Positions 44,707 to 64,000 of a DNA stretch of 64,000 bases are shown in pieces. How positions within the stretch are numbered: position 1 is the first letter of the stretch; every line of letters begins with the position of its first letter. The notes beneath the pieces were generated by a model. It made no database searches and was not told the DNA's origin. It was given only the letters and a program-made list of their open reading frames with translations. The translations under genes and the position numbers were made by a program. The stretch covers positions 200,065-264,064 of the forward strand of contig CATOSP010000001.1 in NCBI GenBank assembly GCA_951812625.1, given 5' to 3'. The DNA is from an uncultured Dehalococcoidia bacterium. GTDB lineage: Bacteria; Chloroflexota; Dehalococcoidia; Lucifugimonadales; UBA3495.

Positions 44707-44715
44707 CCCACCGGG

Positions 44716-47632: not shown

Positions 47633-47863
47633 TTCTAACCCCCATGCGGTTATGACTTACGCAGCTATAGAACAATAGGATTACGCTTTCCATCAAGACA
47701 TTTGGGCCGAACAGACAGCGGGCAAAGGGGGAGCGAGAGGAAATGGCGACAGGAATCGGAAGTAGGAACTTAGCGGTTCTGTCACAGGGTACCACCTTGC
47801 GAGGAGATAGATGGGCCGGGGCCTGAGTCCTTATGTGCCATTTGGACTTAAGTACTGAAGTGC

Positions 47864-48073
47864 TTACCTCCTTCGTCTGATATTTCGTTCAGCACCCTCT
47901 GTACCGCTCTTCGGAAAAGCCAACGGCGCGAGGAGTAACGCCGTCGTTAAACCAGCAATAACCCAGAACCCACTGTCGCCATCGCCAATGATCATCTCTC
48001 CGCAGGCGATGATGCCTACACTAAGAGAAAGCCAGAACCCGAACTTCCACATAAAAACCCTCGGGCGCGACAC
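47864..48073 (-). CDS. Small 2-TM membrane protein
   Basis: FGFWLSLSVGIIACG and FWVIAGLTTALLLAPLAF. Confidence 0.4.
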   Translation of the reverse strand: MSRPRVFMWKFGFWLSLSVGIIACGEMIIGDGDSGFWVIAGLTTALLLAPLAFPKSGTEGAERNIRRRR

Positions 48074-48437
48074 TCGCCGGAGGGTTTATTGCCAGTGGCC
48101 CAGACGGACTGGTAAGATGGATCCGTCCTGGACACAGGAGCCGCTTGCTAACGACGAGGTTCCGCGCTCTGCCCGCTGCCCAACAGCGGGTTTTGCGTTT
48201 TAAGATACCCGGTTTCTCTCAGGCTCAAACCCAGATTAGTATACTGACAGGTTCACAGTCAACCACACCGACCAGAAGAGAAAATTGCGAAACTCAGGAT
48301 ACGCCGCAACAATTGCGGTTTGCGTCAAATAAAATGACGAAACCGTCATCGGAGCAAGTCAACAAATGGTCAGCACTTAAGGGAGACCGACTAGGTGTCA
48401 TCCAACAATCTCGACGAGAAGCCCCTACTTCAATGGG

Positions 48438-48806
48438 CTATCCAGCCATCTGTTCCAGCAACAGGATCGGGATTCCAACGAGAGATACAAGCACCAGCCC
48501 TCCAAGCATCAAGGCATACATCCACCTAGTTCCAGCACGGTTGTTGCCAGTGCGAAGCGGGTATACGACATGCTCCCCTACCCATCGTCCAAAAAGCCCG
48601 CTGCCACCAAGAAAAAAACCAAGCATTCCGACAACCAGACTCCCGGCTACAAGGTCAACAACGAGCCAGTCGACTCCTTCCGTGACCTTGAAAAGTTGAC
48701 TCATAAAGTAAGCGCCAAATCCTACACCGGCAGAAGTCATTCCTGCCAGTGCCCCTAGAGCACGACACTTATGGAGACGGTCTACATCCAAGTCCCTTGT
48801 TTCCAT
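48438..48806 (-). CDS. Membrane protein (122 aa, 3-4 TM)
   Basis: Several hydrophobic helices. No family recognised. Confidence 0.45.
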   Translation of the reverse strand: METRDLDVDRLHKCRALGALAGMTSAGVGFGAYFMSQLFKVTEGVDWLVVDLVAGSLVVGMLGFFLGGSGLFGRWVGEHVVYPLRTGNNRAGTRWMYALMLGGLVLVSLVGIPILLLEQMAG

Positions 48807-49089
48807 ATTTGCTCCACCCCGTCATAGCATAATCTCCTGGGTCGGACAAGAAAGCCAACCCAGAAGCCCAGAGATTCTATATGTTATAACGGAGGGAAGC
48901 ACACAAGTTGCAGCTTCGAGTGAGCACGGCGGGAGATTGAAAATAAGAGTGCCGCCAAACAACAATGGCTCTCAACAAGAGCACTCCAAGGAGGAATGAC
49001 CACTGTAGCAAGGCACAGCCCAAGAGAAATCGAGATCAACCAGCACCAATCATTCCAAAATTAACCGCCGCACTCATACACTCATGCGA

Positions 49090-50295
49090 TCACAATACCG
49101 GCAACGGACAAGGCGGCACGTAATCCATGAACCACTTCAAGGAGATCAATCTGTCCTTCTTGTCATACCCCGAAGACTCGGACTCGGAAACGTAGCTGTC
49201 ACCAACGCCCTCCTCCCAGTCCCAGTCATAAATATTGTTCTTGAACAGGACAGCTCCCGAAATCTCGTCCAGCTCCCTCAGCAGTTGATACATCCGCCGA
49301 GGCAAAGGCCGATCAGGGTACATTTCCTTTCCCAGAAAAGCATACCATCTGAGCATCATCACCACCGCCAACAGTTGTTCCTTGGTAACGGTACTCCCAG
49401 CAACCTCGTACTGCTGTACTCGCTTCTCGGGCTCATGGACCCAACGAACACCATATCGCTCCGGCATCTCCAGGACCTTTCGCTCCGGCATTGCATAAGA
49501 GTCCTTCATCTTCTCAGCTTCAACAGCCTCGCACTCCGGGCAACCCGGCATCGGGGACCACTCAGCAAGCTCCTCCGACCGGATTCCTGTCATGCCTCCC
49601 ATCAGCTCCATCCAGCAGCCGTCGCACAGCGATACTTCACCGCACCGCCCTCCCGGGCGATGAACAAACATGCCCACGGAGGAATAACTTCCCTCGGCCA
49701 ATCCAGCAAAATCTCCGCCACATCGAGCACAGTAAACCTCTTTGTCTTTCAGCGCGGACATATTGGCCTCAAACCTCTCTATCCACTCCTCATACTCCCG
49801 CTGCTTCCTAGCGTCACTACGCATGTCCTCACGGATACCAATCTGCGCGATCTCCGACTTCTGAAGCCGCTCCCAAATCGCTGTAATACGCCTTCTCTCG
49901 CGGTCCCGGCAGTTCCCCGGAGCAATATGCGCTCTACCGACAGCGCACCCATCCGGGCTGTCTCCAGTCTCCAGCTCAAAGACATCTATCCCGTGCCCCA
50001 TACAATGGGCCACCTTCTCGACCGGCAGACCTTCAGTGCCAGTAAACAGCAGCCAAGTGGATGGCCTGGTTCCACGCTCCAACAGAATGTCAGGACCGTC
50101 ACCGCTGCTTCCAGGATCCAGCTGCACCGCTGTGACATCAATCAGAATGTTCTCCACGAACCCTACCCCTGTACAACGGCCACAGCACTCCTTAAAGAAC
50201 AGCCAGAACCCCATCTGCTTCCTCCGGCAAGTCTCCAGCCTATTGAAAAGCATCGCCCGGTTAGCAAAACGAGCGATGTTCTCCCGTTCACTCAT
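49090..50295 (-). CDS. Unknown 401-aa Cys-rich protein
   Basis: Natural acidic/basic composition. Cys pairs CCGRC, CARCGG, CDGC and CPEC. The opposite-strand ORF 49084..50349 looks like a shadow. Confidence 0.6.
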   Translation of the reverse strand: MSERENIARFANRAMLFNRLETCRRKQMGFWLFFKECCGRCTGVGFVENILIDVTAVQLDPGSSGDGPDILLERGTRPSTWLLFTGTEGLPVEKVAHCMGHGIDVFELETGDSPDGCAVGRAHIAPGNCRDRERRRITAIWERLQKSEIAQIGIREDMRSDARKQREYEEWIERFEANMSALKDKEVYCARCGGDFAGLAEGSYSSVGMFVHRPGGRCGEVSLCDGCWMELMGGMTGIRSEELAEWSPMPGCPECEAVEAEKMKDSYAMPERKVLEMPERYGVRWVHEPEKRVQQYEVAGSTVTKEQLLAVVMMLRWYAFLGKEMYPDRPLPRRMYQLLRELDEISGAVLFKNNIYDWDWEEGVGDSYVSESESSGYDKKDRLISLKWFMDYVPPCPLPVL

Positions 50296-50450
50296 CTACT
50301 GCTCCAGCATTATTGGTTTCAAAGTCTTCCTGAATGGGCAACAGGATAGCTCAATCGAGCGCGATCCGTTAGAATCAGAACTCCAAGGAAGCGGAATGCA
50401 ATTCCTAAGCATCCAGACAGACCCAATACTCTTCTGGAAACTCATATCTG

Positions 50451-50810
50451 TCACATTTCTTGTAATGTGGCTACTAACGACCTTAACTCTAGTATTACTA
50501 GGAGCAACACTACGCCTAGTACTGCGCAGGCTAGTCCTGCGAGAAGAATCCACACACCCAAACCAAGGTCTTCTTCCACCGGATCAACCCTCAACCGGCG
50601 ACAACGCCACCTCGAAGTATCCTGTCGCTGAATCCAAAGGCTCAGCATAGACGAAATCAGAACAACCAATCCTATAAAGGTGATAGCGACTCCAAAAGCG
50701 ACCATCGAACCAAAAACCGCGTAGGGAAGCCACCAGAGGCCAACACTTCCCTCACCGTATAAGCCCATGTTCATACTGGCTCTGATGCCTATCACAGTAT
50801 TTGAACACAC
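50451..50810 (-). CDS. Membrane protein (about 105-119 aa)
   Basis: Two long hydrophobic helices separated by a basic loop (RWRCRRLR). Confidence 0.45.
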   Translation of the reverse strand: MCSNTVIGIRASMNMGLYGEGSVGLWWLPYAVFGSMVAFGVAITFIGLVVLISSMLSLWIQRQDTSRWRCRRLRVDPVEEDLGLGVWILLAGLACAVLGVVLLLVILELRSLVATLQEM

Positions 50811-50988
50811 CCATCCCGAAGATGTTCTTGGCTACGGGCTGGTGACATCTCCCATACTGACACTGCCCAACCTGTTTCCGCGCAGGTTTCCCCTTCAACT
50901 TCTTGTGGCAGTTGAGACAGTACGGAAACTTCACCTTCTTTGGACGCTTGCAGATTGGACAACGGCTCCGTCCTCCTCTCGCCACCAT
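50752..50988 (-). CDS. Small Cys/His-rich zinc-finger-like basic protein (78 aa)
   Basis: MVARGGRSRCPICKRP...CLNCHKK...CQYGRC...YCDRH. Its ATG overlaps the stop of the upstream ORF at 50988. The track ORF extends to 51183. Confidence 0.45.
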   Translation of the reverse strand: MVARGGRSRCPICKRPKKVKFPYCLNCHKKLKGKPARKQVGQCQYGRCHQPVAKNIFGMGVFKYCDRHQSQYEHGLIR

Positions 50989-51431
50989 CACGACAATCTC
51001 CAGGTATCTGCGCAGAAGTGCGCGATGGTGTAGATCGGGTATCCCATCTCCTCGCGGAATTCTTTCATGTACTCGATGGTTTGTTTTAGCCCCCAAGCTA
51101 TTCCCTGAATGCGCGGAGGCACAGGGTTGGTTTCCGTGGCCAATGCATGTTCGTCCCAGTCGTTTCTCTGAAGGGCGATACATGCGAGCCTGTATTCGCC
51201 GTCTGTGGGCGGTTCTATCCTGGTGGATTCGAGGACCTCCTTAAACGCTTGGGTTACCATATTGTGGGGCTCTTGGTCTTCGATATGGATTTCAGTGAAA
51301 CCACTGTCTGCCCGAGACTCACTGCCGAACGGATTCCCCATGTCTCGTATTTGGCCAGCTATGGCAAGTGCTCCAGCCATTCCCAATGCAGCCACTATTC
51401 CCCAAAAACCCTGCTGCCAACTCACGCTCAT
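50988..51431 (-). CDS. N-terminally anchored protein of unknown function (147 aa)
   Basis: N-terminal TM FWGIVAALGMAGALAIAG followed by a soluble domain. Confidence 0.5.
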   Translation of the reverse strand: MSVSWQQGFWGIVAALGMAGALAIAGQIRDMGNPFGSESRADSGFTEIHIEDQEPHNMVTQAFKEVLESTRIEPPTDGEYRLACIALQRNDWDEHALATETNPVPPRIQGIAWGLKQTIEYMKEFREEMGYPIYTIAHFCADTWRLS

Positions 51432-51468
51432 TTAATTCCTCCAGCAACTTTGTGCGCAGCTCCGATCC

Positions 51469-51756
51469 TCACATGCACCGCTCTACCGGCAATAACACGA
51501 GAGCCCCCAAGCAGAGACCAAAGAGCACAAGGCCCACGAACACCGTCATTCGGATGAATCTCCGGTCCGCGAGGAGAGCCTCATCACTGACTTGGTACTG
51601 AGGCATGAACCGGACAATAACCGCGCCGACCACCATCACAACTCCAACCACAACGCCCAACGCCGCCAATGAACCCAGCGCACACATCACTCGCGCTCTT
51701 TCATGCCAAAGCAAACAGGCTGGCCCAACAGGATAGAAGATTGGCATCGCCAACAC
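51469..51756 (-). CDS. Small membrane protein (95 aa)
   Basis: Two or three hydrophobic helices. Confidence 0.4.
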   Translation of the reverse strand: MLAMPIFYPVGPACLLWHERARVMCALGSLAALGVVVGVVMVVGAVIVRFMPQYQVSDEALLADRRFIRMTVFVGLVLFGLCLGALVLLPVERCM

Positions 51757-51807
51757 TGCCGTGGGCCAGCTCCATCACCAAGCCACGGGTCTTCTGACAT
51801 AGAAAAA

Positions 51808-51845
51808 CCTCCCGTTCAACGGTGACCACTCACCGGAACGGGAGG
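51808..51845 (-). terminator. Strong intrinsic terminator (minus strand)
   Basis: 10-bp GC stem CCTCCCGTTC/GAACGGGAGG with a nested GGTGA/TCACC hairpin. On the minus strand it is followed by TTTTTCT. Confidence 0.6.
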
Positions 51846-52102
51846 CCAGGGTCGCTTGACTGCCGACGAAAACCTTAACGCCGTTGCTCATGGAGGACGC
51901 CCCCTTTCGGTGGTGGGATAGAGGCTACCTGCCAGAGCAACCTTGATCCTCAATGAGCCGCAAGGGGGCACGAATGCCCCTTTCCCAATGCTCACCGGAC
52001 AACGGACTCTCAAAGACTAACTGGGGTTGCTCTGGCACGCCCATTCAAGCACAGAGAGGGAGTGACTGTAAAGAAAACCCTGTCACAATTGTTTTACATG
52101 GC
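51846..52102 (-). ncRNA. Candidate structured RNA bounded by two minus-strand terminators
   Basis: A 12-bp long-range pairing (51931-51942 GCCAGAGCAACC with 52025-52036 GGTTGCTCTGGC) encloses a hairpin at 51962-51982. No convincing ORF. No class recognised. Confidence 0.25.
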
Positions 52103-52140
52103 AAAAAGAAAAGCCGCCGGCAGAGTCCGGCGACTTTGTT
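52103..52140. terminator. Hairpin with T-runs on both strands
   Basis: GCCGCCGG-CAGAGT-CCGGCGAC. The minus strand continues TTTTCTTTTT and the plus strand TTTGTT. Confidence 0.5.
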
Positions 52141-52619
52141 ATTATAGTAGAAAAGTTGGGCTGGAGGCCCCGATTTAGCTACGAACGCAACTTATGTCCC
52201 TGCCTCAACCCTGTTAGCAGTTTCCTGCACCCAAACCCCAAGATAGCCTAACACTTCCAACTCCTTTCAATAATGGATCGGCTATCGACTAACAAGAGTC
52301 GTCAGGGAGCGGTGGCCGTTGGCAGTCTGGGGTCGGGCCTTCCAGTCCCACCACACTGGACAAAATCAGGAACCTTCACCATCTCGTTCGCTTTAGCCCT
52401 GTAACCGGGCTGGCACCGCCCTGCCAAATGTATGCCCCGCGGGTGTAAATGGGGGTGCCGGGCGCGAATAGAGTGGGTCTGATGCCCCTGTAGCGAAACG
52501 AAGGGCATCGGTCATATACCGTCTCCCCTCACCGCTCCTGCTTCCCCCGAGACCCCATGCCTGCCTTTGCCCGGTCCTGAAGGTCTTGGCATTCCGTTAG
52601 CATAGGGTGCGCGGACAAT

Positions 52620-53225
52620 TCATTGCCTGGCGACGGTCTTCCTCCTTCGTGAGAACTGACGCTCTACTCCGGTGACCCTCATTCGGAAATCCATCATCTG
52701 CCTACTAACCCCAAATTCGTCGCACGCTACATCCTTCGGCCTCTTTTGGGCACTCAATCTCACAAGGGCATCCCTAGGTAGCAACAGGGCGCCAGCGAGC
52801 CAATTTGCCTCTTCTTCGGCAGCCTTGTTAAACCCACGTAAGGCGAGGTTCTCCTGCCCAGCGAAAAACATAGTGCTTGGTTCATGGCCTAGCAAGAGGT
52901 GAGCCAATTCGTGCATCACATCGCTGGAATAGCGACCACGCCGGTGATTTGGGTTTAGGATGATGGCGTCCCGGTTAGCGGCCGATACAGTTATAGCGGA
53001 CCAAGAATCCGGGTCGCTATGCACCAGTTGCGTGACGTCGGCAGGAGCTAATCCAAGGTCTTCGACTGACCAAAGATATACTCCCAAATACGACGCGAGT
53101 TGTTCTGCTGGTAAGGGGGCAGCCGGGTCCAAGCCTAACTCTGCTCGTAGCGAGCGGGACATCTCCTCACAGCGGGTTTTAAAGCCCTTCTCCATCCACT
53201 TCTCCCACCTTTCCAGGTGCATCAT
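52620..53225 (-). CDS. capP: ImmA/IrrE-family Zn metallopeptidase (CapP-like)
   Basis: HELAHLLLGH (HEXXH) and a 201-aa length. It lies immediately downstream of, and overlaps, the XRE gene. Confidence 0.7.
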   Translation of the reverse strand: MMHLERWEKWMEKGFKTRCEEMSRSLRAELGLDPAAPLPAEQLASYLGVYLWSVEDLGLAPADVTQLVHSDPDSWSAITVSAANRDAIILNPNHRRGRYSSDVMHELAHLLLGHEPSTMFFAGQENLALRGFNKAAEEEANWLAGALLLPRDALVRLSAQKRPKDVACDEFGVSRQMMDFRMRVTGVERQFSRRRKTVARQ

Positions 53226-53574
53226 GCAACATCAACTGTGCCCTGAGAATGGCGTTAGCCAGAGCGCCCGCCGTGTTCGGGTCGATCTCGCGATGTGCCT
53301 TCAGGTGCGCAGCAGCGACATGGGTAGGGGTTGTTTCCGTTGATTGGGGCGTAACGTCCAAAAGGGCACCCGGGTCTACACCTAGCCAGCGACATAGTTT
53401 CCCGAAGGTTTGGAGGTCGGGCATTTTGCCTGACTCAATGCGAGAGAGGGTCGGCGCGCTGGTGCCAATTTCGCTCGCCACCGTCCTAAGCCCTCGAGAA
53501 CCCCGTTTTTCACGGACAATGGTTCCTAGGTTCTGTAATGTGACCTTAACCACAGCGCCTCCCGTTCCAGCCAT
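53179..53574 (-). CDS. capH: XRE-family helix-turn-helix regulator (CapH-like)
   Basis: LRTVASEIGTSAPTLSRIESGK is an XRE HTH. The gene is divergent from the CBASS-like operon. Confidence 0.7.
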   Translation of the reverse strand: MAGTGGAVVKVTLQNLGTIVREKRGSRGLRTVASEIGTSAPTLSRIESGKMPDLQTFGKLCRWLGVDPGALLDVTPQSTETTPTHVAAAHLKAHREIDPNTAGALANAILRAQLMLHDAPGKVGEVDGEGL

Positions 53575-53686
53575 GAAACAACGTCTTGACAGCGTAACGT
53601 CTGTTGGGTTAGCCTATGCGTAACCCTAGCAAAACGCTGTTTCACTCGTGGTGATTGGATGATAATCAAGAACCAAGCCGTAGTCA
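53575..53686. promoter_or_regulatory. Divergent control region between the XRE regulator and the patatin gene
   Basis: TTGACA at 53586-53591 with TAGCCT about 18 nt downstream. ACGTCT is repeated at 53582 and 53597, and a related ACGCTGTT sits at 53634. Confidence 0.3.
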
Positions 53687-54667
53687 ATGGTGGTGTTCGG
53701 AGAGCTTGTCGTGTCTAGCTTCGACCGGACAAGGCCACCGACAGTTCCAACAGAGAGCTTCAGCATCCTGGCGGTGGATGGAGGTGGTACGAGAGGGATT
53801 TACGCCGCTCAAATCCTTGCCAAAGTCGAAGATGCTCTCGGGCGGCAGGTCAACGACTGTTTTGACCTTCTCGCTGGGACGAGCACCGGATCCATCATCA
53901 CGGGAGCCGCGGCGTCGGGAGTTCCATTGAAAGAAGTGGTCGCTTTATTCGAGAAAGAATCGCCGCGCATTTTTGGGAAAGCCCGCTTTCCTGCTCGCAT
54001 CTCCGTGTTCTGGCGTAGCCGGTACTCCAGGACGACTCTCGAAAGCGTGCTACAAGAATACCTGCCCCAGGCCGTCCTTCGGGATATATCGACCCCACTG
54101 ATGATAACGAGCGCTGATATAGCCACGGGCGGAGTCCACGTCTTCAAGTCCCGCTACTTGGGCGATCTCGGAGAACCCTATGAGAGGGACGGAGAGGTGC
54201 TCCTCAGCGATGCGATTCTTGCCTCCTGCGCGGCGCCGACCTATTTCGACCCCAAGGCAGTGGGGCCGTATCTGCTGACGGATGGCGGCCTTTGGGCCAA
54301 CAATCCGTCAATCATAGCGTTTACCGAGGCTGTATCAAAATTCAAGAAGGAGGTGGCGGAGGTAAGAGTTTTGTCCGTAGGCACTGGCCACACGACGACC
54401 ATGTACACGAAACGGAGTTCTTGGGGCCTCCTGACCGGATGGGGAGGTAACAAGCTGGTCTCATACACTTTGGGGCTTCAATCACAGGCTTCTACGAACA
54501 TGGCAAAGCTTATTTTAGGCGACCGATACCTGCGTCTTGACCCGGAGATTGACAGCTGGGAATTGGACGATACCAGGCACCTCGCTAACCTAAAAGCTCT
54601 CGCAGAGAGGGATTTCACATACCGGTCCAAAACAATCCTAGACCACATAAGGAGAAACACCGAATGA
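53687..54667 (+). CDS. Patatin-like phospholipase (CapV-like CBASS effector)
   Basis: DGGGTRG oxyanion motif, GTSTGS nucleophile elbow and a DGG catalytic Asp region. Confidence 0.85.
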   Translation: MVVFGELVVSSFDRTRPPTVPTESFSILAVDGGGTRGIYAAQILAKVEDALGRQVNDCFDLLAGTSTGSIITGAAASGVPLKEVVALFEKESPRIFGKARFPARISVFWRSRYSRTTLESVLQEYLPQAVLRDISTPLMITSADIATGGVHVFKSRYLGDLGEPYERDGEVLLSDAILASCAAPTYFDPKAVGPYLLTDGGLWANNPSIIAFTEAVSKFKKEVAEVRVLSVGTGHTTTMYTKRSSWGLLTGWGGNKLVSYTLGLQSQASTNMAKLILGDRYLRLDPEIDSWELDDTRHLANLKALAERDFTYRSKTILDHIRRNTE

Positions 54668-55623
54668 AGCGGGTAGAAGACTTCAACGAATTCCTGTCCA
54701 ACCATGTGAACATCAACCAGTCCCGGTTGGACGATCTGAACGACCATGTCGCGGCTGTGACGACGCACTTGAGTCGGGACTTGGAGTCGTTCAAAAAAGT
54801 GGAGCGCCAAGGCTCCTATGCCTTGCGGATGATTATCAAGCCGAAGGAAAAGAAGGAATACGACGCCGACGTGCTGCTCTTCATGAAGTACCAGCCGGGA
54901 AAGAAACCTGCCGAGTACATCAACGACGCTTACAACTGCCTCCGGCAACACGGCACCTACAAGGACATGGTGCATAGGAAGACCCGCTGCGTGATGGTGG
55001 ATTACGCCGGGGATTTTCACTTGGACATCGTTCCTTGCGTCGAGTTCAACGGCCAACGCTACGTCTGCAACAACAAGACCAACCAGTTCGAAGTCACGGA
55101 CGGAACCGGCTATCGGGACTGGTTCAACCGGAAGACCCAGATCACCAACGGCAATCTCAAGCGAGCCACAAGGGTTCTCAAGTATATGCGAGACCACAAG
55201 GGCAACTTCACCGCCCCTTCGATCCTCCTCACCACTCTTATCGGAATGAGTGTGCAGGACAACGAGGGCGACGCCTGCTTCAAAACCGTCCCCGACACGT
55301 TGAAGACGGTATGCAACCGCATAAACGCTTTCTTGCAGGCCAATCCCAACCAGCCCGAAATACGCAACCCGGTGCTACACCAGGAGACCTTCACGCGGCA
55401 TTGGGACCAGAACAAGTACCGGAACTTCCGGGACAAGTTCAAGATTTACAATGACCAAGTAAACGACGCCTATGATGAGACCGACCCCCAGAAGAGCGTA
55501 CAGAAATGGCAGAAGCTGTTCGGTGAGGACTTCGGCAAGTCGAAGTCCAAGAGCAGCGGAGCGTCTGGCGCCGCGGCAATGGCTGCCACGACCGTAACTC
55601 CCAGGAAGCCTTGGGCGAGATGA
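54664..55623 (+). CDS. SMODS/CD-NTase-type nucleotidyltransferase (putative cyclic oligonucleotide synthase)
   Basis: QGSYALRMIIKP....EYDADVLLF....FHLDIVPC gives the pol-beta GS / DxD / D triad. ATGA overlap with the patatin stop. Confidence 0.75.
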   Translation: MKRVEDFNEFLSNHVNINQSRLDDLNDHVAAVTTHLSRDLESFKKVERQGSYALRMIIKPKEKKEYDADVLLFMKYQPGKKPAEYINDAYNCLRQHGTYKDMVHRKTRCVMVDYAGDFHLDIVPCVEFNGQRYVCNNKTNQFEVTDGTGYRDWFNRKTQITNGNLKRATRVLKYMRDHKGNFTAPSILLTTLIGMSVQDNEGDACFKTVPDTLKTVCNRINAFLQANPNQPEIRNPVLHQETFTRHWDQNKYRNFRDKFKIYNDQVNDAYDETDPQKSVQKWQKLFGEDFGKSKSKSSGASGAAAMAATTVTPRKPWAR

Positions 55624-56252
55624 AACTGCAAGACACTGATCCGGAATGGCTGGCATCAAACTTCCCGGAATTGGATTTCCAGCCGGATGGCCAGCAGATT
55701 ACCGGGGAGCTTCGCTTCTGCGCTGCCTTTGACCGGGACTCAGGCCAACTGAGGTTGGGTGACACCGACGAGCATCGGGCAATTGGCACTTTTCTGTGCG
55801 ACGCGTTCAAGGTAAGGATCGACTTGGGCCATCTGGGAGACAATGGATGGCCCAGGGTCTATGAGGTTGGCGGGCGTTGCATCGACATTGCGGAGCAAAA
55901 TCAATGCGCTATGATTGACCTGCATCTGTTTGAAGATGGAGCTTGCTGCTTAGGTCTGAATTTCGCCACCGACAGGAATCTTACCCTTCACCGGTTTGTG
56001 CTCGAGCTGGTGATTCCCTTCTTTTACCGCCTGTCTTACACCGACCGTAATGGGTTGGCTGCTGCCAAGGACGACCTGTGGGGAGAGTATTTCCACGGGG
56101 ATGCTGGTGTACGCAAATACAAAGAGGAGATTCTCCAACTGGTCGGCAACAATCCTGGTAGAAACGAATCTTGCCCTTGCGGGAGTGGGCTAAAATACAA
56201 GAGATGCCACTTGGACGAAGTAGAAGCAGTTAAACGCCGTTGGTTGCGCTAA
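55620..56252 (+). CDS. SEC-C-motif protein, possibly an E2/UBC-like CBASS accessory
   Basis: C-terminal CPCGSGLKYKRCH. F.V.IDL....GWPRVYEVGG...IDLHLFEDGACCLGL resembles the UBC layout (YP..PP.v.F...HPN...G.iCl). ATGA overlap with the CD-NTase stop. Confidence 0.45.
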   Translation: MKLQDTDPEWLASNFPELDFQPDGQQITGELRFCAAFDRDSGQLRLGDTDEHRAIGTFLCDAFKVRIDLGHLGDNGWPRVYEVGGRCIDIAEQNQCAMIDLHLFEDGACCLGLNFATDRNLTLHRFVLELVIPFFYRLSYTDRNGLAAAKDDLWGEYFHGDAGVRKYKEEILQLVGNNPGRNESCPCGSGLKYKRCHLDEVEAVKRRWLR

Positions 56253-56278
56253 TTATCGTCCGATAGAGAGGGACGACC

Positions 56279-59200
56279 GTGACAACATCCACCGTCAACC
56301 CAATACCTTTCCGCCTTGAATCCACCTTCGGAGCCGGCCGAAAATGGACTTCCCAGGCTGGCTCTATTGCTACAGCCTGGGAGTTGCCCGCCTACCATCT
56401 GCTGTGGGCCGGTGACACAACCGCCGAAGGTGAAGTCCGCAGATTGTGGGAGGCGAGAAAGGGCCGCCAAGCCTATCCTGTGGTCCTACTGTCCCCGTCG
56501 GACGATGAAACGAAAGTCAAGGTGGCCGGCCCGCAGGACGCTCGCCCGGTACGGGAATTGCCCGTCGGCCGGGTACTCGACCTGCTGGAAGACAGCCATA
56601 ACCTAGCGGCCCGCGAAGCGGCATCGTTCCTGGCGAGGGAGTTCGCCCGCCTTGAGGAGGCCGTGGTTCCCGGCCTGCGGGTCAAGGACCTGCTCACGCC
56701 TCATTTCCTACGGGAGCGGATGCGCTGGCCCGTGAACCGGGGGCGATTGTCCGGCGCTGTTGAAGGCAAGGGACGCACTGGGAGTATCGCATGGCGCTCC
56801 CTGTTTCAGGAAATGGGTTACCAAGTGGAGCAACTGCCGCAGCGCGGCTACCTGCTCCGGTACGACAACGCTCCGGTTGCCGTCGTACATCCCCACCGCG
56901 ACCCATCCCAGTTCAGCCGTCTCACAGACAACGGGGAACTGCCCGAAGGAATGGTGCTGGCTGACTGCGGGCAGTACGGAGCTCAGTGGGGCGTCCTGGC
57001 AGCATCCGGACGCTACCGGCTTTTCCAGCGGCGGCCTCCGGTCGGCCCGGCTACCGGGCAGCACTTGGAAATAGATACGGCTGAGTTGGAACGGAAAGAC
57101 CGTTTTTATCTTGGCCTTCTTGCGCCGGAATCTCTCAAGGAAGATGGCTGGCTGACCGGGTGGGTTGCGGAAGCGAAGGACTTTGGCGAAGAGTTGCGCA
57201 AGGGACTGGAAGAGCGCCTGATCAAGGACGCGCTACCCAACATCGCCCGGGGCTTGGGCGAGTATCTTGAATCGCTGGGCACCGACTTGAACGACCCTGA
57301 ACAGCTTCGGCAGATTGAAGAGGCGGCGCTGACTCTGGTGTTTCGGTTCATGTTCCTGCTTCACACCGAAGCCCGTGGCTACCTGCCCATTGGTTCGGCG
57401 GCTTACCGACCCCACAGCGCCCGTCAACTGGCCGAGGATTCCCGCCTGGCCGGGTCTTCCCTCAGCCGGAAAGCCACACAACGGTGGGACCGCTTGCGGA
57501 CTCTCGTGCGGATGATTCGAACCGGGGACCGCTCCGCTGGGGTCCCCGCGTACAACGGCAGCCTGTTTGCTGCCGACGGCTTCCCCGGCAGCGCCTTGCT
57601 GGAACGGGCCGAGATTGCCGACGTTTACCTGGCTCCCGCCCTCGTGTCCATCGCCTATGAAACCGATAAGGTCGACTCTCCGGGGTTGGACTACGCCGGC
57701 CTACAAATCGGCCACCTTGGAGCCATCTATGAAGCCTTGCTGACCTTGAGGCTGACCCGTGCACCCGAAGACCTGGCCTACGATTCTAAGCGTGACATGT
57801 TTCGACCCATTCGTTCTGGAGAGAAGCCGGAGCTCACCAAGGCCCAACTCTATTACCAATCGGAGGCGGGCGGGCGCAAGGCTCGGGGAGTTTTTTACAC
57901 CCGCCACGAGTTCGTTAGCCACCTGCTGAATCATTCTCTGTTGCCCGCCCTCGACGACCATTTGGCCGAAATCGGGGAGGTGGCTGACCGGAGTCCCATT
58001 GAAGCCGCGCAGAGGCTCTTTGATTTCTCCGTTGTGGACCCGGCGATGGGCAGCGCCCACTTCCTCACGGCGGCCTTGGATATGATGGCCGACCGTATCG
58101 AGATTTTCCTGGCCGAGGTTGGCGGCTTGCCCGGTATTGCTCAGCAACTCAGCGAGTTGAGTCAGGACAGCGGAGCAGTCTCCCAGCAGCCGGAGGACGG
58201 GGACCTGCTGCGGCGACTCGTCCTAAAACGCTGCATCTACGGCGTTGACCTTTCCCCCATGGCGGTGGAAGTCGCCAATGTCACCCTGTGGCTGGCGTCT
58301 TTCGTCCCTGGTCTGGCCCTCTCCTACCTGGGCAGCAACCTTAAATGCGGCGATGCCCTCATCGGCGTGGCCGACCCTTCCGTTGTCGGGGCCAGCGACA
58401 GCCCCATGTTCACCGGCCAGAACGTGCGTAACGCGATGGAACAAGCGGCCCGGTTGCAACGGGAGCAGGCGGCCATTCCAGACCGTACTCCCGAAGAGGT
58501 CAAACGCTCCGAGGAACTTGGCGCTCAGCGCGACGAGGCTACCGCCGGTCTGCGGTCAGCTTTCGACCTGTGGACGGCGGAACCGCTGGGACTGGACGGC
58601 GCCCGCCATACCCTGGAGACCCACGCGGACTCCATCATCGAAGCTGGCAAACAGTCGGCTGCTGAAGTTACGGATGCGATTGCGGAAGCATCGCATATCG
58701 GCAGCCAATACCGCTTTTTCCACTGGCCCCTGGAGTTACCCAACGTTTTTTACCGGGAACGTGCAGGATTCGACGTGGTTGTGGGCAATCCACCGTGGAA
58801 CGAAATAACCATCGAGGAACTGGCCTTCTACGCGCTGCGTGAGCCAGGACTGCGTGGATTGCCTAATCTAGCTGAAAGAAGAAAGCGCATAGCGCAACTC
58901 GACAAACAAAACCCTGACTGGCGAGAGGAGTTTGAGGACCAGCAGAGACAATTGAAAACAGTCCGGGGGTTCTTTTCAGAAAGCGGGGGATACCAGCTTC
59001 AAGGAGTAGGCGACAAAGATCTGTACCAACTCTTTTGCGAGCGGTACAGCCATCTCGTTAGGCAGGATGGTCGTTTAGGAGTAGTGCTACCCAGAACGGC
59101 ATTCCTTGCAGAAGGTGCCAAGGGTTTCAGGAGATGGTTGTATGAGCGGACCACGGTAACGACGGTCGACTTTCTCTTGAATGCTGGGCGCTGGGCGTTT

Positions 59201-60262
59201 GATATGGAACCTCGGTACACAGTTGCACTGTTGACTGCTCAACGCAGAACACCAAGCAAGGAAGCCACTTTCCAAATAACAGGACCTTCCGCAAACCTCA
59301 AAGAGTTCCATGATGCGTCACTCGGCCAAGGCGTAAGCGTTCCGGCGTCCTCCTTGGGAAGCGCCCGGGTAGTGCCTCTGTTGCCAAGCCAGATGCACGC
59401 CGATGTGTTAGCCAAATTACGTCGCGGCGTCCAGTTCGATTCGCTCCAAAATCCCGAAAATCAAAAAATTTCAAAAGGGCGCGCTGCTGTGTCTCATCTA
59501 GCTCCCTATACGGAATTGCATGAGACACAGCAGCGCGCCCTTTTCTCTCATTCCAGAGGTTTTCCAGTGTGGAAGGGCCGGTCCTTTGATCAGTACGAGC
59601 CTCATGGTAATGAACCTGCCGGGTACTCCAAGTGGAATGAGGTCCTTTCTTGGGCACAACAGAAGCGCAAGCGATCCCCCGTCTTCAAGCGGATGTTCTC
59701 CACCGAAGAACTTTCCGATCCTAATACCCACCCAATAAACTACTGCCGAGTCGCATTCCGGGATGTGACACGAACCACCGACTCCCGAACAGTAAGAGCC
59801 TGCTTGGTTCCACCACGGACGCCGTTAACCAACAAAGGACCGTACTTGATATTTTCTGGGTGGAGCAGTTTGGCACAGGCCAGCGTCTTGGGGACTTTGA
59901 ACAGCCTTCCGTTTGACTGGATTGCCCGGCGTTACGTTGAAACGAACATGAACTACTTTATTTTGAATATGCTCACCTTCCCACCGCCAGCTAACACTCC
60001 TTGGCAGGGCATCGGCAGATTGGCAGCACGGCTGTCCTGCGTGGACGAGCGGTTCGCTGACTTTGCGGCGGAGACCGGAGTGCAGTGCGGGCCGTTGACC
60101 GATGCCGACCGCAACGACAAGCGGGCGGAAATCGACGCACTGGTGGCTCACGCCTACGGGCTGACCGAGGACGAACTGCGGTTCATATTCACCGACTTCA
60201 CCGAGAACGCTGTTACTCCCGCCTACCGGGAGAAAGTCTTGGAATGGTTCGAGCGTTTGTAA
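56279..60262 (+). CDS. Large N6-adenine DNA methyltransferase of the Eco57I / MmeI / PglX-like (type IIG / BREX / DISARM-MI) kind
   Basis: AYNGSLF, GVFYTRHEFV, VVDPAMGSAHFL (motif I, about nt 58034), IYGVDLSPMAVEVA and FHWPLELPNVF...FDVVVGNPPW (motif IV at nt 58787-58798). About 340 aa of the N-terminus are unassigned. Confidence 0.8.
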   Translation: MTTSTVNPIPFRLESTFGAGRKWTSQAGSIATAWELPAYHLLWAGDTTAEGEVRRLWEARKGRQAYPVVLLSPSDDETKVKVAGPQDARPVRELPVGRVLDLLEDSHNLAAREAASFLAREFARLEEAVVPGLRVKDLLTPHFLRERMRWPVNRGRLSGAVEGKGRTGSIAWRSLFQEMGYQVEQLPQRGYLLRYDNAPVAVVHPHRDPSQFSRLTDNGELPEGMVLADCGQYGAQWGVLAASGRYRLFQRRPPVGPATGQHLEIDTAELERKDRFYLGLLAPESLKEDGWLTGWVAEAKDFGEELRKGLEERLIKDALPNIARGLGEYLESLGTDLNDPEQLRQIEEAALTLVFRFMFLLHTEARGYLPIGSAAYRPHSARQLAEDSRLAGSSLSRKATQRWDRLRTLVRMIRTGDRSAGVPAYNGSLFAADGFPGSALLERAEIADVYLAPALVSIAYETDKVDSPGLDYAGLQIGHLGAIYEALLTLRLTRAPEDLAYDSKRDMFRPIRSGEKPELTKAQLYYQSEAGGRKARGVFYTRHEFVSHLLNHSLLPALDDHLAEIGEVADRSPIEAAQRLFDFSVVDPAMGSAHFLTAALDMMADRIEIFLAEVGGLPGIAQQLSELSQDSGAVSQQPEDGDLLRRLVLKRCIYGVDLSPMAVEVANVTLWLASFVPGLALSYLGSNLKCGDALIGVADPSVVGASDSPMFTGQNVRNAMEQAARLQREQAAIPDRTPEEVKRSEELGAQRDEATAGLRSAFDLWTAEPLGLDGARHTLETHADSIIEAGKQSAAEVTDAIAEASHIGSQYRFFHWPLELPNVFYRERAGFDVVVGNPPWNEITIEELAFYALREPGLRGLPNLAERRKRIAQLDKQNPDWREEFEDQQRQLKTVRGFFSESGGYQLQGVGDKDLYQLFCERYSHLVRQDGRLGVVLPRTAFLAEGAKGFRRWLYERTTVTTVDFLLNAGRWAFDMEPRYTVALLTAQRRTPSKEATFQITGPSANLKEFHDASLGQGVSVPASSLGSARVVPLLPSQMHADVLAKLRRGVQFDSLQNPENQKISKGRAAVSHLAPYTELHETQQRALFSHSRGFPVWKGRSFDQYEPHGNEPAGYSKWNEVLSWAQQKRKRSPVFKRMFSTEELSDPNTHPINYCRVAFRDVTRTTDSRTVRACLVPPRTPLTNKGPYLIFSGWSSLAQASVLGTLNSLPFDWIARRYVETNMNYFILNMLTFPPPANTPWQGIGRLAARLSCVDERFADFAAETGVQCGPLTDADRNDKRAEIDALVAHAYGLTEDELRFIFTDFTENAVTPAYREKVLEWFERL

Positions 60263-60263
60263 G

Positions 60264-63200
60264 ATGACTACTCGCCAGCCCCGGTTTACCCCCCTCGGCA
60301 GTTCTTACGAACTGGTCGATAACGATGTCTTCGGCTCCCACGAACAGGCGTTGGAGTGGCTGGCGAACACCTATGTCGATCCCCTCAACGTCGCCACCGG
60401 ATACGTCAGTCTGGAAGGGCTGGACGCACTGGCGAAGATAGTGACCGGCAGGGTCGGCGGAGGCAGGCTCCTTATCGGGGCAACCCCCTTGTCCGAGAGC
60501 CTAATTGGTCCGGTAAGCGAGACCATAGCCGGGCGGCTTGAACAATCGGTGAGTTCGCTGGGGCGGCAGCGGGACTTCTCGGCCTTTCCTGCCGCCCGCC
60601 GGGCTGTCCTGGAGCGGGTGACAGGTTTCATCGAGGCCGGGAACGTTGAGGTTAAACGGTACGCCAGGGGCTTCCTGCACGGCAAGGCGTACATCTTCGG
60701 CGATTTCGAAGGCAGGACCATCGGGACCGGCGCGGCCCTGGTTTCTTCGGCCAACCTCACCTTCGGCGGCTTGGTGTCCAACCGGGAACTGGGCATGGTT
60801 CACTACCAGCCCAACGTGGTGGCGATGGCGTTGGACTGGTATCAGCGCTTGTGGGATGACGCCTTGGATTTTCGGGAAGGGTTGCTGGAACTGCTGCGAC
60901 CTCCGTTACTGGAGAGCGATCCGCAAACCGTGTTCCTGCGGGCTCTGCTGGAACTTTACCAGAGCGACTTAGATGACGCTGAAGTTGACCTTCCCGACCT
61001 CCACACGCTTACCGCTTTCCAACGGGACGGGTTGGCGCGGGCCAAACGCATTCTGGATCAGCACGGCGGCGTCCTTTACGCCGACGGCGTGGGCATGGGT
61101 AAGACCGAGATCGGCGTCCAGTTCATCCGGGAGTACATTCGGGACCGTGGGCAATACGCTCTGGTAATCTCCCCGGCACAGTTGCGGGACCACCTGTGGG
61201 ACCAGCGCCTGAGCGAAGAGAACGTCCGCACAACCGTGGTTTCCTATCAACAGTTGGCCCAAGACCGCCAACTCGTCGCTCGCGGCGGGCGACAAGTCTT
61301 ACCGGTAGATAAGGACTCATACCGGTTGGTCGTAATTGACGAGGCACACGCCTACCGCAACGTGGACAACACCTGGTACGCGGCACTGGACCGCCTCATG
61401 GGAGGTACGCCGAAGAAGCTGCTCCTTTTGACCGCCACGCCGGTCAACAACTCCCTGTGGGATCTGCACAACCTCTTCCTACTATTCGCACGCCACGACA
61501 GCGCCTTCAGTGGGGAACCACTGAGGATTTCCAGCTTGCGGAAGTTCTTTACCGACGCCGGCGCGTCCAGGACTGAAAACCTCTCTGAGGCCAAGCTGTT
61601 CCCTTTGGTCGACGCTCTGACGGTGCGGCGTGACAGGGCTTTTATCAAGGACCGCTACCGGAACGAGCGATTCATTGACGGAACGCCAGTCAAGTTCCCC
61701 GAACCGGAACTGCATGAGCGCCGTTATGACTTGGACAACGCCCATCCCGGAATCGTCCAGGCCATTTACGACGGGATAGACGGTCTGACAATGGCCCGTT
61801 ATCGCCTGTCAGCCTATAGGGTAGACAAACAGGAAGAGTCAGCGTCGGAAGAAGCGCTGGCCGGTTTGATACAGTCCCAATTGCTGAAACGCTTCGAGTC
61901 GTCCTGGTATGCGGCGCTGCAAACCGTGAACAGGATGCGAGATGGCAACGACGTGCTGCTACGTGTTATCAGAGAGCGGGGAGTTGTGCCGCCTCCGGAG
62001 GTCATCAGGGACTTGGTTGGCGATTCCAGAGAGGATGACACCTTCCTTAGCACCGACCTGATTGACGAGGCATTGGCCGACTCCGAGGGCGGGATTTCCG
62101 CTGACAAGTTCAACGACCATTTCTTGCCAGACTTGGAAAGAGACCGGGATGCCCTGGCAGCCATGTCAATACAGTTGGAGCACTTGGAGGGCAGACCCGA
62201 TCCCAAGCTGGATACCCTCACAGAGGTAATGTCCGCGACGCCCTCCCAGAAGATAGCGGTGTTCACAGCTTTCCAGGACACCGCCACCTACTTGAAGGAG
62301 CAAATCGAGAGTCAACCGGAAGTGTTAGGGCACCGTAATTGGACGGTGGTGATTGGTTCCGAGACCAGTGCCGATGCCCGTACCAGGGAGCTTGAAAGGT
62401 TCTGCCCGGAGTCGGTCACGGACGAGCCGGGCTTTGTGCCTGAAAACGGCGAAGTGGACGTAATCATCAGCACCGACATCCTCTCGGAGGGGCAGAACCT
62501 TCAGCAAGCCCAAGCTGTACTCTCTTTTGACATGCCCTGGAACCCCCAGCGCGTAGTGCAGCGCAATGGCCGCATCATCCGCCTGCGCAGCCCCCACGAC
62601 ACCGCGTACCTCTACACTCTGCTTCCCGAACAGGGGGACCTGGACCGACTGTTGAGACTGGAGGCCAAGCTCCAGGCAAAAATTATGGCAGCGAACGCGT
62701 CAGTGGGTATGGAAACTCCGGTGTTGGCCGACGTAGAAACCGAATCTCAAGTGTACGCTGATCTGAACACTTTTGTAGAACGTCTTGCCAGTGGAGACAC
62801 GACCCTGCTGGACGAGCAGGAAAGCAGCGGGGAGAGCGGTTCGGCGTTTGCGGGTGAACTATTCCGCTCCCATCTTCGCCGGGCGGCCGAGGAAGGCGAA
62901 GTGGACCGGCTCCAGAGCTTGCCCTGGGGCATCGGAGCCGCTTTCGTTCAACGACTGCCGTCACTGGCGGAGCCTGCGGTGTTCTTCGCCTGCCGCACTC
63001 GTGGCGATGAACGCTACTGGCGCATGGTGTCCCAATCAGGAGAAATCCTGCACCGGGATGACTTACCGATGCTCCGCTTGATAGACCCCCAGCAACAACC
63101 TGGCATTCCTGTCCCCGATGGTCTCGACCTGGAGCATCTGTTTACGGTTGCTGCCGACGACATCTGCGCCGAGCATAACGCGCTGCTCGACCCTGAAACG

Positions 63201-63521
63201 CGGTTCGCTTCCCTTCCGGCCAGCCAGCGTTGGGCGCTGGACGTATTACGTTCACCGGACGCTCCATCCGGCGATGAGTACGACGAGGGAGACCAAGCCC
63301 TTTCGGTAGGCCGGAACAACCTAGTCAGGCGTCAGTTATCCGAACTGCGGCGGGAGTACGAAGGTGGCGGCATGAGCGTGACTGACTGTGCTCGTCGGAT
63401 CACAGAAGTAGTCGCACAGTTCGGACTGCGCGTGGTGGGACTTCCCCAAGCTCCCGAACCTATAACTGAGGACGACCTTGGAGTCGTCTGCTACCAGGTG
63501 GTGGTGCCGTCGAGAATGTAG
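60264..63521 (+). CDS. PLD-nuclease / SNF2-family helicase fusion
   Basis: LHGKAYIF...SSANLT is a single HKD motif (about nt 60678-60761). SNF2 motifs are DGVGMGKT, VIDEAHAYRN, LLLTATPVNNSLWDL, SEGQNLQ and QRNGRIIR. The start lies 1 nt after the MTase stop. Confidence 0.8.
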   Translation: MTTRQPRFTPLGSSYELVDNDVFGSHEQALEWLANTYVDPLNVATGYVSLEGLDALAKIVTGRVGGGRLLIGATPLSESLIGPVSETIAGRLEQSVSSLGRQRDFSAFPAARRAVLERVTGFIEAGNVEVKRYARGFLHGKAYIFGDFEGRTIGTGAALVSSANLTFGGLVSNRELGMVHYQPNVVAMALDWYQRLWDDALDFREGLLELLRPPLLESDPQTVFLRALLELYQSDLDDAEVDLPDLHTLTAFQRDGLARAKRILDQHGGVLYADGVGMGKTEIGVQFIREYIRDRGQYALVISPAQLRDHLWDQRLSEENVRTTVVSYQQLAQDRQLVARGGRQVLPVDKDSYRLVVIDEAHAYRNVDNTWYAALDRLMGGTPKKLLLLTATPVNNSLWDLHNLFLLFARHDSAFSGEPLRISSLRKFFTDAGASRTENLSEAKLFPLVDALTVRRDRAFIKDRYRNERFIDGTPVKFPEPELHERRYDLDNAHPGIVQAIYDGIDGLTMARYRLSAYRVDKQEESASEEALAGLIQSQLLKRFESSWYAALQTVNRMRDGNDVLLRVIRERGVVPPPEVIRDLVGDSREDDTFLSTDLIDEALADSEGGISADKFNDHFLPDLERDRDALAAMSIQLEHLEGRPDPKLDTLTEVMSATPSQKIAVFTAFQDTATYLKEQIESQPEVLGHRNWTVVIGSETSADARTRELERFCPESVTDEPGFVPENGEVDVIISTDILSEGQNLQQAQAVLSFDMPWNPQRVVQRNGRIIRLRSPHDTAYLYTLLPEQGDLDRLLRLEAKLQAKIMAANASVGMETPVLADVETESQVYADLNTFVERLASGDTTLLDEQESSGESGSAFAGELFRSHLRRAAEEGEVDRLQSLPWGIGAAFVQRLPSLAEPAVFFACRTRGDERYWRMVSQSGEILHRDDLPMLRLIDPQQQPGIPVPDGLDLEHLFTVAADDICAEHNALLDPETRFASLPASQRWALDVLRSPDAPSGDEYDEGDQALSVGRNNLVRRQLSELRREYEGGGMSVTDCARRITEVVAQFGLRVVGLPQAPEPITEDDLGVVCYQVVVPSRM

Positions 63522-63743
63522 GATGTTAGAACGGGACCGTGAGACGAGCAAATTGAGTAGACACGATTGAGCGGTAGAAAGCCCAGGGCCGAGCGACGAC
63601 GAGAAGCTCGCCAGGCACGAAAGGCAAGACCACCTCGTAGGTCCGAGGAGCTTCTGTATCCCTTGGACAATCTGAGCACGACCACCGCAGATTCGGCGAG
63701 TTGGTTGGCTGAGCGGGAAAGGCGCGGGGCGACAAGGGTCGAG

Positions 63744-64000
63744 ATGGATGCAATGTTTGACGATGCAGTCGTCGTTTTCCCAGCTTCGACCAGCAGACCC
63801 ATCGCTGAGCCATGCGTCGAGATGTACGAGTTCATCTCAGCCGCGTCACGATCCGCAGCCGCCGGGGTCGAAGTTCTCGACCGCCTAAACACTGAGGACG
63901 ATCCGCACCTTGTCGCCGCCCTAAAGAGATACATTGAGGACACAGGACAAGCACTGAAGGAAGTAGACAACCGGCTCAAGAAGCTGCATTCTGGGCTGAA
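63744..64000 (+). CDS. 5' part of a further ORF running off the window (function unknown)
   Basis: MDAMFDDAVVVFPAS...LKRYIEDTGQALKEVDNRLKKLHSGL has natural composition. The frame is open from 63561, and a TTG at 63567 is possible. The competing minus ORF 63491..63979 is Ser/Arg-rich. Confidence 0.4.
   Translation, partial: MDAMFDDAVVVFPASTSRPIAEPCVEMYEFISAASRSAAAGVEVLDRLNTEDDPHLVAALKRYIEDTGQALKEVDNRLKKLHSGL

Follow-up and report, generated by a model that had tools for sequence, protein, structure and literature searches.

That defence genes are stacked in islands, and embedded in one another, is well documented, and a Type ISP restriction enzyme unites nuclease, ATPase, methyltransferase (MTase) and target-recognition domain (TRD) on one polypeptide. 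Among nucleotide-signalling systems, Type II (short) cyclic oligonucleotide-based antiphage signalling systems (CBASS) with a CapV phospholipase have been described under the control of CapH and CapP, regulators proposed to let CBASS cooperate with restriction systems, and genes like capH and capP are also found on the restriction-modification (RM)-like loci of DISARM (defence island system associated with RM) (Lau et al., bioRxiv 10.1101/2022.04.27.489752); an E2-only CBASS type is mentioned in PMC11153139. On the restriction side, a helicase with an HKD nuclease followed by an SNF2 motor is known from the Type-2 systems (Hma-like, DUF499-centred) related to bacteriophage exclusion (BREX) (Rakesh and Krishnan, NAR 2026, PMC12839542), and from C3a139 "HKD+Snf2," a Type III CRISPR-associated accessory cluster (Shah et al. 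2018, PMC6546367). In this report we analyzed a 64,000-nt stretch ("the window") from an uncultured Dehalococcoidia bacterium (assembly GCA_951812625.1, contig CATOSP010000001.1, positions 200,065 to 264,064), in which a CBASS module is followed, on the same strand, by genes for a Type IIG-like MTase and an HKD-SNF2 helicase ("the pair"). Among the papers listed by a search for operons shared by CBASS and RM, none describes this arrangement. Our reading, to which we give a probability of roughly 0.7, is that the string is a composite cassette: two self-sufficient systems whose operons were fused once, in an ancestor, and which probably share transcription and act independently.

What carries this reading is the distribution of the two halves. 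The helicase-side census took one genome per species and covered 42 close relatives with 54-91% helicase identity, while an open reading frame (ORF) map of 44 helicase-anchored loci was built by tblastn and ORF clustering with a simple longest-ORF heuristic; related loci are given L-numbers, and WIN is the window's own locus. By tblastn, both genes of the pair are present in ~38 of the 42 close relatives, and a full CBASS lies upstream in only 4 of those. Only six loci (the window, L001, L002, L003, L008, and L068) have the complete series capP-capH-patatin-cyclase-E2 directly 5' of the MTase, and the recurrence of the same order and junctions in the five relatives places the string beyond chance. 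In a neighbor-joining (NJ) tree of the helicase, these loci form one clade with L056 and with L004/L005, in which relics of the E2 gene remain, and the single clade points to one fusion event. A block beginning at the capP stop (~52.6 kb) and reaching the end of the helicase gene is colinear in five other genomes, with 80-86% DNA identity, between flanks that are unrelated from genome to genome; its left edge lies at 52604-52645, beside the capP stop, its right edge at 63511, and conservation ends at the helicase stop. GC content is ~0.55 in the CBASS genes versus 0.60-0.63 in the 5' half of the MTase gene.

Decay has proceeded in both directions. The junction between the two halves, retained in WIN, L001, L002, L003, L008, and L068, persists as a relic in L004, L005, L042, L063-66, and L069. 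CBASS has been lost from L004, L005, and L042, which keep only the 3' part of the E2 gene before the MTase, and L056 has lost both CBASS and most of the MTase to insertion sequences (IS). On the other side, L063-66 have a complete CBASS, then ~24 nt of the MTase start, then an IS; in L069, a CBASS whose only defect is a single in-frame stop in the patatin gene precedes ~410 nt of decayed MTase 5' end; and the CBASS relatives L067, L070, and L071 (72-79% cGAS/DncV-like nucleotidyltransferase [CD-NTase] identity) hold neither an MTase nor a relic of one. Single in-frame stops in the CBASS genes of some relatives could reflect decay or assembly error. This CBASS-side comparison rests on seven look-ups (protein search plus contigs), and a metagenome scan with the CD-NTase gave 6 loci, none of them close. 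The preliminary description of this DNA had weighed a fortuitous stack of defence genes against a genuinely coupled system. Because the pair is found mostly without CBASS and each half survives alone, we favor the former, refined to a single-origin operon fusion inherited as a block; the latter is unsupported, since close CBASS relatives are without the pair and losses have occurred on both sides.

The same distribution makes it very improbable that the two halves are obligately coupled, with the CD-NTase product gating the HKD-SNF2 nuclease or the methylation status gating the cyclase. The most that can be said for such gating is that the genes are tightly packed, that the block is conserved, and that CBASS genes also adjoin the helicase, in a different order, in L057; CBASS already has an effector of its own, and family scans of the MTase and the helicase detected no nucleotide-sensor domain (SAVED, CARF, STING, or similar). 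L057 (1-6310 of the metagenome contig MKWU01001877.1) encodes the C terminus of a Uma2 protein, an HKD-SNF2 helicase (56% identity), patatin, CD-NTase, and E2, has no CapH/CapP between the helicase and its distant CBASS, and ends before any MTase position. It is, judging by gene order, a second, independent CBASS adjacency. L004/L005 have, at 1979-5616, a 990-aa Type IIG-like RM gene and a gene for a 222-aa protein on the same strand upstream of the E2 relic, and their predicted products indicate that one defence module has been replaced by another at the same site.

The string itself is compact: from capP to the helicase it spans 10.9 kb, with five tightly packed genes, or seven if the divergent regulators are included (Table 1). 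All ORFs and junctions given in the preliminary description were recovered, and the identities that it had assigned (patatin, CD-NTase, SEC-C protein, XRE/ImmA, adenine MTase, and PLD-SNF2 helicase) are borne out by family scans and motifs. The patatin and CD-NTase genes overlap by ATGA; the CD-NTase stop at 55621-55623 overlaps the SEC-C protein ATG at 55620 (the mechanical ORF begins at TTG 55611, whereas gene calls in relatives begin at the ATGA overlap); 26 nt separate the SEC-C protein stop at 56252 from the MTase GTG at 56279; and 1 nt lies between the MTase end at 60262 and the helicase ATG at 60264. The 26-nt gap holds TCGTCC (56256-61), GAGAGGG (56266-72), and GGACGA (56271-76), with no T-tract. 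The letters of the 6-bp hairpin reported earlier for this gap are thus present, but the structure does not stand out against shuffled sequences (z = 0.37, with an equally good fold in 127 of 200), and relatives show one mismatch (L008), loss of two of the six pairs (L003), or one G-U pair (L068) and no compensatory changes. We therefore reject it as a regulatory element. Most of the CBASS-fused clade begins the MTase with GTG (the window, L001, L002, L004/5, L008, L068, and the L069 relic), whereas nearly all other loci with a recognizable start have ATG, as do L003, L042, and the L063/64 relics.

Table 1. Features of the gene string and its immediate surroundings (window coordinates)
Feature	Position	Strand	Basis
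capP-like ImmA/IrrE metallopeptidase	52620..53195	-	Pfam Peptidase_M78, PADLOC capP, HELAH
capH-like XRE helix-turn-helix repressor	53179..53574	-	Pfam HTH_3
Putative divergent promoter/operator region	53574..53687		TTGACA 53586-91, inverted repeat, minus-strand promoter-like site
CapV-like patatin phospholipase, CBASS effector	53687..54667	+	NF041079, PADLOC Effector, motifs
CD-NTase, CBASS cyclase	54664..55623	+	Pfam SMODS, PADLOC Cyclase, motifs
E2-only Cap2 with C-terminal SEC-C zinc motif	55620..56252	+	PADLOC CBASS E2 PDLC00872, Pfam SEC-C
Fusion junction, 26 nt	56253..56278	+	Only RBS-like GAGAGGG and weak 6-bp hairpin
Type IIG-like N6-adenine DNA methyltransferase, 1327 aa	56279..60262	+	PADLOC REase_MTase_IIG, Pfam Eco57I, motifs, AF2/Foldseek
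Variable TRD-like MTase segment, aa ~841-1206	58801..59897	+	DNA alignment breaks, low-consensus columns
HKD(PLD)-SNF2 helicase-nuclease, 1085 aa	60264..63521	+	Pfam, PADLOC C3a139, PDB sequence search, motifs
Downstream ORF, unrelated to the string, runs off the window end	63663..64000	+	L056 match; outside conserved block

The first half of the string is, from its gene content, a complete Type II-short CBASS with an E2-only Cap2. The patatin exceeds the cutoff of the NCBIfam model for a "CBASS cGAMP-activated phospholipase" (NF041079 CBASS_lipase, 238 bits against 200), matches PADLOC Effector at 7e-83, and has intact GGGTRG, GTSTG, and DGG motifs. The CD-NTase matches Pfam SMODS (3e-31) and PADLOC Cyclase (9e-117) and carries the motifs GSY50 and DAD67, while scoring below the cutoffs of the NCBIfam cyclase equivalogs. 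The SEC-C protein (210-213 aa) matches Pfam SEC-C and, over aa 15-208, the PADLOC CBASS E2 model PDLC00872 (3e-24; E2 models range from 3e-24 to 2e-6). Natural cyclase-E2 fusions exist among relatives of the CD-NTase, as 557-aa proteins with a SEC-C domain and 58-61% identity (P0180, P0187, P0188, P0200, and P0225). The catalytic motifs of this arm are all intact in the window, and the ORFs of the window include no E1 or JAB/Cap3 gene and no extra gene between capH and the MTase. The absence of E1 and JAB genes is the reason for the assignment to Type II-short, which agrees with the SMODS/DncV cyclase with GS and DxD motifs, the effector in the same operon, and the E2-only Cap2. In all these respects, as in its divergent helix-turn-helix (HTH) and M78 genes upstream and its conserved promoter-operator region, the arm resembles known Type II (short) CBASS. 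The difference is that the operon of the window continues past E2, without a recognizable terminator, into two large restriction-like genes.

The XRE and ImmA genes of the window correspond, by family matches and position, to the divergent upstream regulators CapH and CapP. The capP-like product matches Pfam Peptidase_M78 (4e-16) and PADLOC capP (1e-9) and has HELAH at aa 105 of a 201-aa ORF, which as a mechanical ORF extends to 53225 (relatives are called at 191 aa); the capH-like product matches Pfam HTH_3 (4e-8) and is 88-98% identical in CBASS-linked relatives. An HTH protein and an M78 Zn-peptidase, divergent from the operon and upstream of it, is the layout described by Lau et al. The intergenic region between capH and the patatin gene holds a 26-nt imperfect inverted repeat (53574-99 / 53619-44) and, by consensus scan, a minus-strand promoter-like TTGACT-17-TATCAT at 53687-53659; an invariant TTGACA and TGAAACA/TGTTTCA arms are conserved in all close CBASS relatives, both with and without the restriction-like pair. 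Regulators of this kind recur around the module: L009 (2031-3147) and L010 (2791-3763) carry a different XRE and ImmA pair, 31-35% identical to that of the window, which is encoded on the plus strand and precedes the AbiE genes and the MTase.

The second half of the string begins with the MTase, which matches PADLOC REase_MTase_IIG (PDLC03620) over its full length (5e-116), contains a Pfam Eco57I domain, and has motifs I (DPAMGS587) and IV (NPPW837). Restriction endonuclease (REase)-like folds at its N terminus and a helical region precede the MTase core, which is followed by a variable TRD-like region and a C-terminal domain, a layout that puts MTase core and TRD on a single polypeptide, as in Type IIG enzymes. 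By sequence and profile, PDB returned only a short match to the MTase core of BsaXI. An AlphaFold2 (AF2) model of aa 1-560, built on an alignment of diverse representatives, has a pLDDT of 87.6 and consists of two alpha/beta domains together with a long helical region (an earlier model on a shallow alignment had a pLDDT of 61 and no significant fold matches). Its best Foldseek match is the Type IIG enzyme BpuSI, a weak one (E = 4.7e-3), followed by the PD-(D/E)xK folds of Hjc, SPARDA, and HsdR nucleases at E > 0.08. Within aa 1-260 no catalytic D/ExK is invariant across the family, and for this reason we treat a nuclease on the MTase as unproven: its modelled REase-like folds make it a candidate that might bear one. 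Compared with BpuSI and MmeI, the protein shares the REase-like N-terminal folds, the helical region, the gamma-class N6A MTase core, and the variable TRD. It differs from Type IIG and ISP enzymes in that the helicase-nuclease is separate and of PLD/HKD rather than PD-(D/E)xK type, in that no D/ExK is conserved, and in the weakness of the BpuSI match.

Just after NPPW, the segment at 58801-59897 cannot be aligned as DNA in two relatives (L003 and L004), and in L008 the alignment is interrupted close by. Low-consensus columns lie within the segment, while its flanks keep ~80% DNA identity. In NJ trees the MTase and the helicase of L003 fall into different clades. Thus, aa ~841-1206 look as if they have been swapped among close relatives, in the manner of a TRD.

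The helicase has a single N-terminal HKD/PLD domain (Pfam PLDc_2, aa 113-197) followed by SNF2-rel_dom/Helicase_C (aa 234-774), with the motifs HGKAYIFGD, GMGKT (Walker A), DEAH, and QRNGRIIR (motif VI). RapA is its best relative in a PDB sequence search, consistent with a RapA-like SNF2 core. Since each helicase has a single HKD motif, cleavage would need a dimer or two converging enzymes. The best PADLOC model is C3a139 (8e-49), so this type of protein has already been seen beside another defence system; the known association is with CRISPR-Cas loci, and neither a function nor an MTase partnership was established there. The helicase can outlast the MTase: it is intact in L056 and L025, where the MTase is truncated or none lies within 10 kb upstream, and in L028, where the MTase match is shortened at the N terminus. 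This pattern fits a restriction activity targeted through the MTase and is also compatible with early decay.

Together the two proteins define what is, by its distribution in sequence databases, an old, widespread, and unnamed two-gene restriction-like module of bacteria, archaea, and plasmids. In 39 of the 44 loci of the ORF map the two genes share a strand, with the MTase upstream, and no third gene is conserved within 10 kb in the 44 loci, in the Pfam-annotated L056 and L068, or in the plasmid loci. The relatives are mostly metagenome-assembled genomes (MAGs) of Dehalococcoidia/Chloroflexota, several labelled as sponge-derived bins, with a few Binatia, Acidimicrobiales, and Gemmatimonadota; many appear to stem from long-read assemblies. 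A wider search counted roughly 1600 relatives of the helicase. At 26-32% identity over the full length, the pair occurs on plasmids of Rhodococcus erythropolis, Euzebya pacifica, and a haloarchaeon, where RefSeq labels the two genes only "hypothetical protein" and "helicase-related protein," and the N-terminal region of the MTase alone has 981 cluster representatives (50% identity clusters) at E <= 1e-10. In 22 of the 39 loci, 0.37-3.1 kb lie between MTase and helicase, mostly other defence genes; AbiEi/AbiEii genes are upstream of the pair in eight loci and a TIR protein gene is downstream in three. Judging by these neighbors, the pair is an insertion hotspot, or docking site, for other defence genes, as has been reported for Hma (PMC11232893). 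The cargo of the slot comprises DUF5131 with TcmP (PADLOC PDC-M30/M41), Uma2 (PDC-S03), a PIN protein, a trypsin-like protease, and uncharacterized genes, and the loci with slot insertions include L006, L012, L013, L016-L019, L021-L023, L030, L032, L034, L035, L038, and L042. Two genes, one for a Replic_Relax-family protein and the other for a large serine recombinase, are found repeatedly a few kilobases 3' of the helicase (L056 13488-18187; L068 18697-18966; cluster c2/c8 in L009, L014, L015, L017, and L028). The gene content around the pair suggests that it often rides an integrative mobile element.

Partial matches to models of DrmMI, DrmD, HmaA, BrxHI/BrxHII, and PglX, together with an HKD-then-SNF2 order that agrees with the helicase of Type-2 BREX-related systems (PMC12839542), raise the question whether the pair is a fragment of class 1 DISARM, of an Hma/BREX-related Type-2 system, or of BREX type 3, with the remaining genes past the window end. 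This we consider highly unlikely. All these matches fall far below the family cutoffs (DrmD reaches 109 bits against 610, and the PADLOC matches to DrmMI span only aa 516-841). Conservation, moreover, stops at the stop codon of the helicase: the expectation that a DrmA/DUF1998-like or ATPase gene would follow was not upheld, nothing being conserved 3' of the helicase. With class 1 DISARM the pair shares an SNF2 helicase, an N6-adenine MTase, a PLD nuclease domain, and, in some DISARM loci, CapH/CapP-like regulators; it differs in the fusion of PLD to the helicase, in the low DrmD/DrmMI scores, and in the absence of DrmA and DrmB (DUF1998) from the neighbors in the 44 loci, L056, and L068. With Type-2 BREX-related systems it shares the N-terminal HKD nuclease followed by a RapA-like Swi2/Snf2 helicase, a large N6-adenine MTase, a proposed RM-like logic, and inserted foreign defence genes; the DUF499 AAA+ ATPase and standalone DUF3780 are absent within 10 kb in the 44 loci, in L056, in L068, and on the plasmids, and the MTase is best matched by Type IIG (5e-116), its PglX/PglXI match being weak (2e-9). 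As for BREX proper, neither PglZ nor BrxC occurs in the window region or among the conserved neighbors. The pair combines SF2 ATPase, nuclease, MTase, and TRD as Type ISP enzymes do, but as two separate genes, often with other genes between them. Membership in DISARM, Hma/BREX-related systems, BREX, and Type ISP was thus rejected for want of the defining partner genes or architecture.

How the pair is expressed bears on whether the two halves are linked in regulation. In nine loci (L013 and the eight in which AbiE lies upstream), a TTGCAA-N17-GATAAT motif precedes the MTase ATG by ~50 nt. This motif is missing from the CBASS clade, in which only the shared "agagaggg" ribosome-binding site (RBS) stands directly after the E2 stop, and a consensus scan, uninformative for Chloroflexota, whose promoters are poorly defined, found no terminator-like or sigma-70-like site in 56253-56278. 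With no terminator and no promoter-like motif, read-through from the CapH/CapP-controlled CBASS promoter is the simplest expectation, and for this clade a plausible one on the layout of the junction. A softer form of coupling follows from the same facts: damaged or single-stranded DNA made by restriction would activate CapP, CapH would be cleaved, the whole string would be induced, and failure of restriction would lead to abortive infection. The conserved divergent promoter-operator, the absence of the upstream promoter-like motif and of a terminator at the junction, and the inheritance of the block as a unit would suit such a circuit, as would the cooperation already proposed by Lau et al. 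and the CapH/CapP-like genes on DISARM. We nevertheless think it rather unlikely, since each arm persists with intact ORFs after losing the other, since such synergy works in trans with any restriction system and so needs no fusion, and since a repressor over a methylase/nuclease pair risks under-methylation, which argues for some constitutive expression.

In the composite cassette that we prefer, the first arm would act as its described counterparts do (Lau et al., bioRxiv 10.1101/2022.04.27.489752): the CD-NTase would respond to infection by making a cyclic nucleotide, which would switch on the patatin phospholipase and so kill the cell, the E2-only Cap2 would modulate the cyclase, and CapH would repress the operon until DNA damage triggers its cleavage by CapP. 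In the second arm, the Type IIG-like MTase, bearing the target-recognition region, would mark host DNA, and its HKD-SNF2 partner would provide ATP-driven translocation and a nuclease against unmarked DNA, the two domain sets suggesting an enzyme that works like Type ISP or Type I but is divided between two genes. The fusion would have put CBASS directly before the MTase RBS, removing the promoter-like motif, and the arms would share inheritance and probably regulation while acting independently in mechanism. Several points weigh against this account. The block is intact in at least six species-level genomes and, taken with the L057 adjacency, may point to selection that favors the combination beyond chance. 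The MTase may be driven by a promoter within the E2 gene. The restriction mechanism of the pair is read from its domains, and the MTase might itself cut DNA. Finally, MAGs make up most of the relatives, ORFs were called by a crude method, and the NJ trees are without support values. A bolder version holds that the fusion was adaptive: a promoterless pair would have come under the DNA-damage-responsive CapH/CapP together with CBASS, giving a hard-wired two-layer immune operon with more-than-additive protection, in which damage from restriction, or its failure, would in turn raise both restriction and abortive infection. Independently of this, the pair would be a distinct, widespread, minimal "split Type ISP" with a PLD nuclease that doubles as an insertion hotspot. 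We put this bolder version forward tentatively, as an improbable extension of the composite cassette.

Outside the block, the plus-strand ORF that the preliminary description had appended to the string does exist, but it stands ~140 nt beyond the helicase stop and is not tightly joined to it. Its frame is open from 63564, and the gene call equivalent to that of L056 is at ~63663; it is 97% identical to L056 11326-11760 (gene called at 11425-12195), is common to L056 only, being absent 3' of the helicase in all other relatives, and gave no match in Pfam, NCBIfam, or PADLOC scans. L056 (93% helicase identity, 88% DNA identity to 64000) served as proxy for the region downstream of the window, and by similarity to it the window probably continues into a mobile-element backbone. 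On the other side, capP is separated from a DUF1015 gene by ~8 kb (44700-52600) with a lower GC content of 0.51-0.56 and a strongly negative GC skew (to -0.32), which may be further island cargo. Pfam and PADLOC scans of the ORFs at 45-52.6 kb gave no match, and two antiparallel ORFs of ~400 aa occupy the same DNA (49084-50349 plus, 49090-50295 minus). A ~390-nt element at 45032-45425 matches, at 89% identity, a portion (7300-7693) of the insertion by which the L007 MTase gene is interrupted, and weaker copies lie in L028 and L067; from these copies it is probably an IS or a repeat like a miniature inverted-repeat transposable element, common to these genomes.

The string is therefore a composite of known kinds, and the claim of a new coupled system is not upheld. 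It matters in three respects. First, the census defines an uncharacterized two-gene restriction-like family, consisting of a Type IIG-like methylase and an HKD-SNF2 helicase. Second, the 10.9-kb cassette is compact and clonable, which makes it a test case for synergy and regulation among co-regulated layered defences. Third, if read-through holds true, the cassette would be a natural case in which a single switch that senses DNA damage governs two mechanistically different immune layers, DNA restriction and abortive nucleotide signalling.

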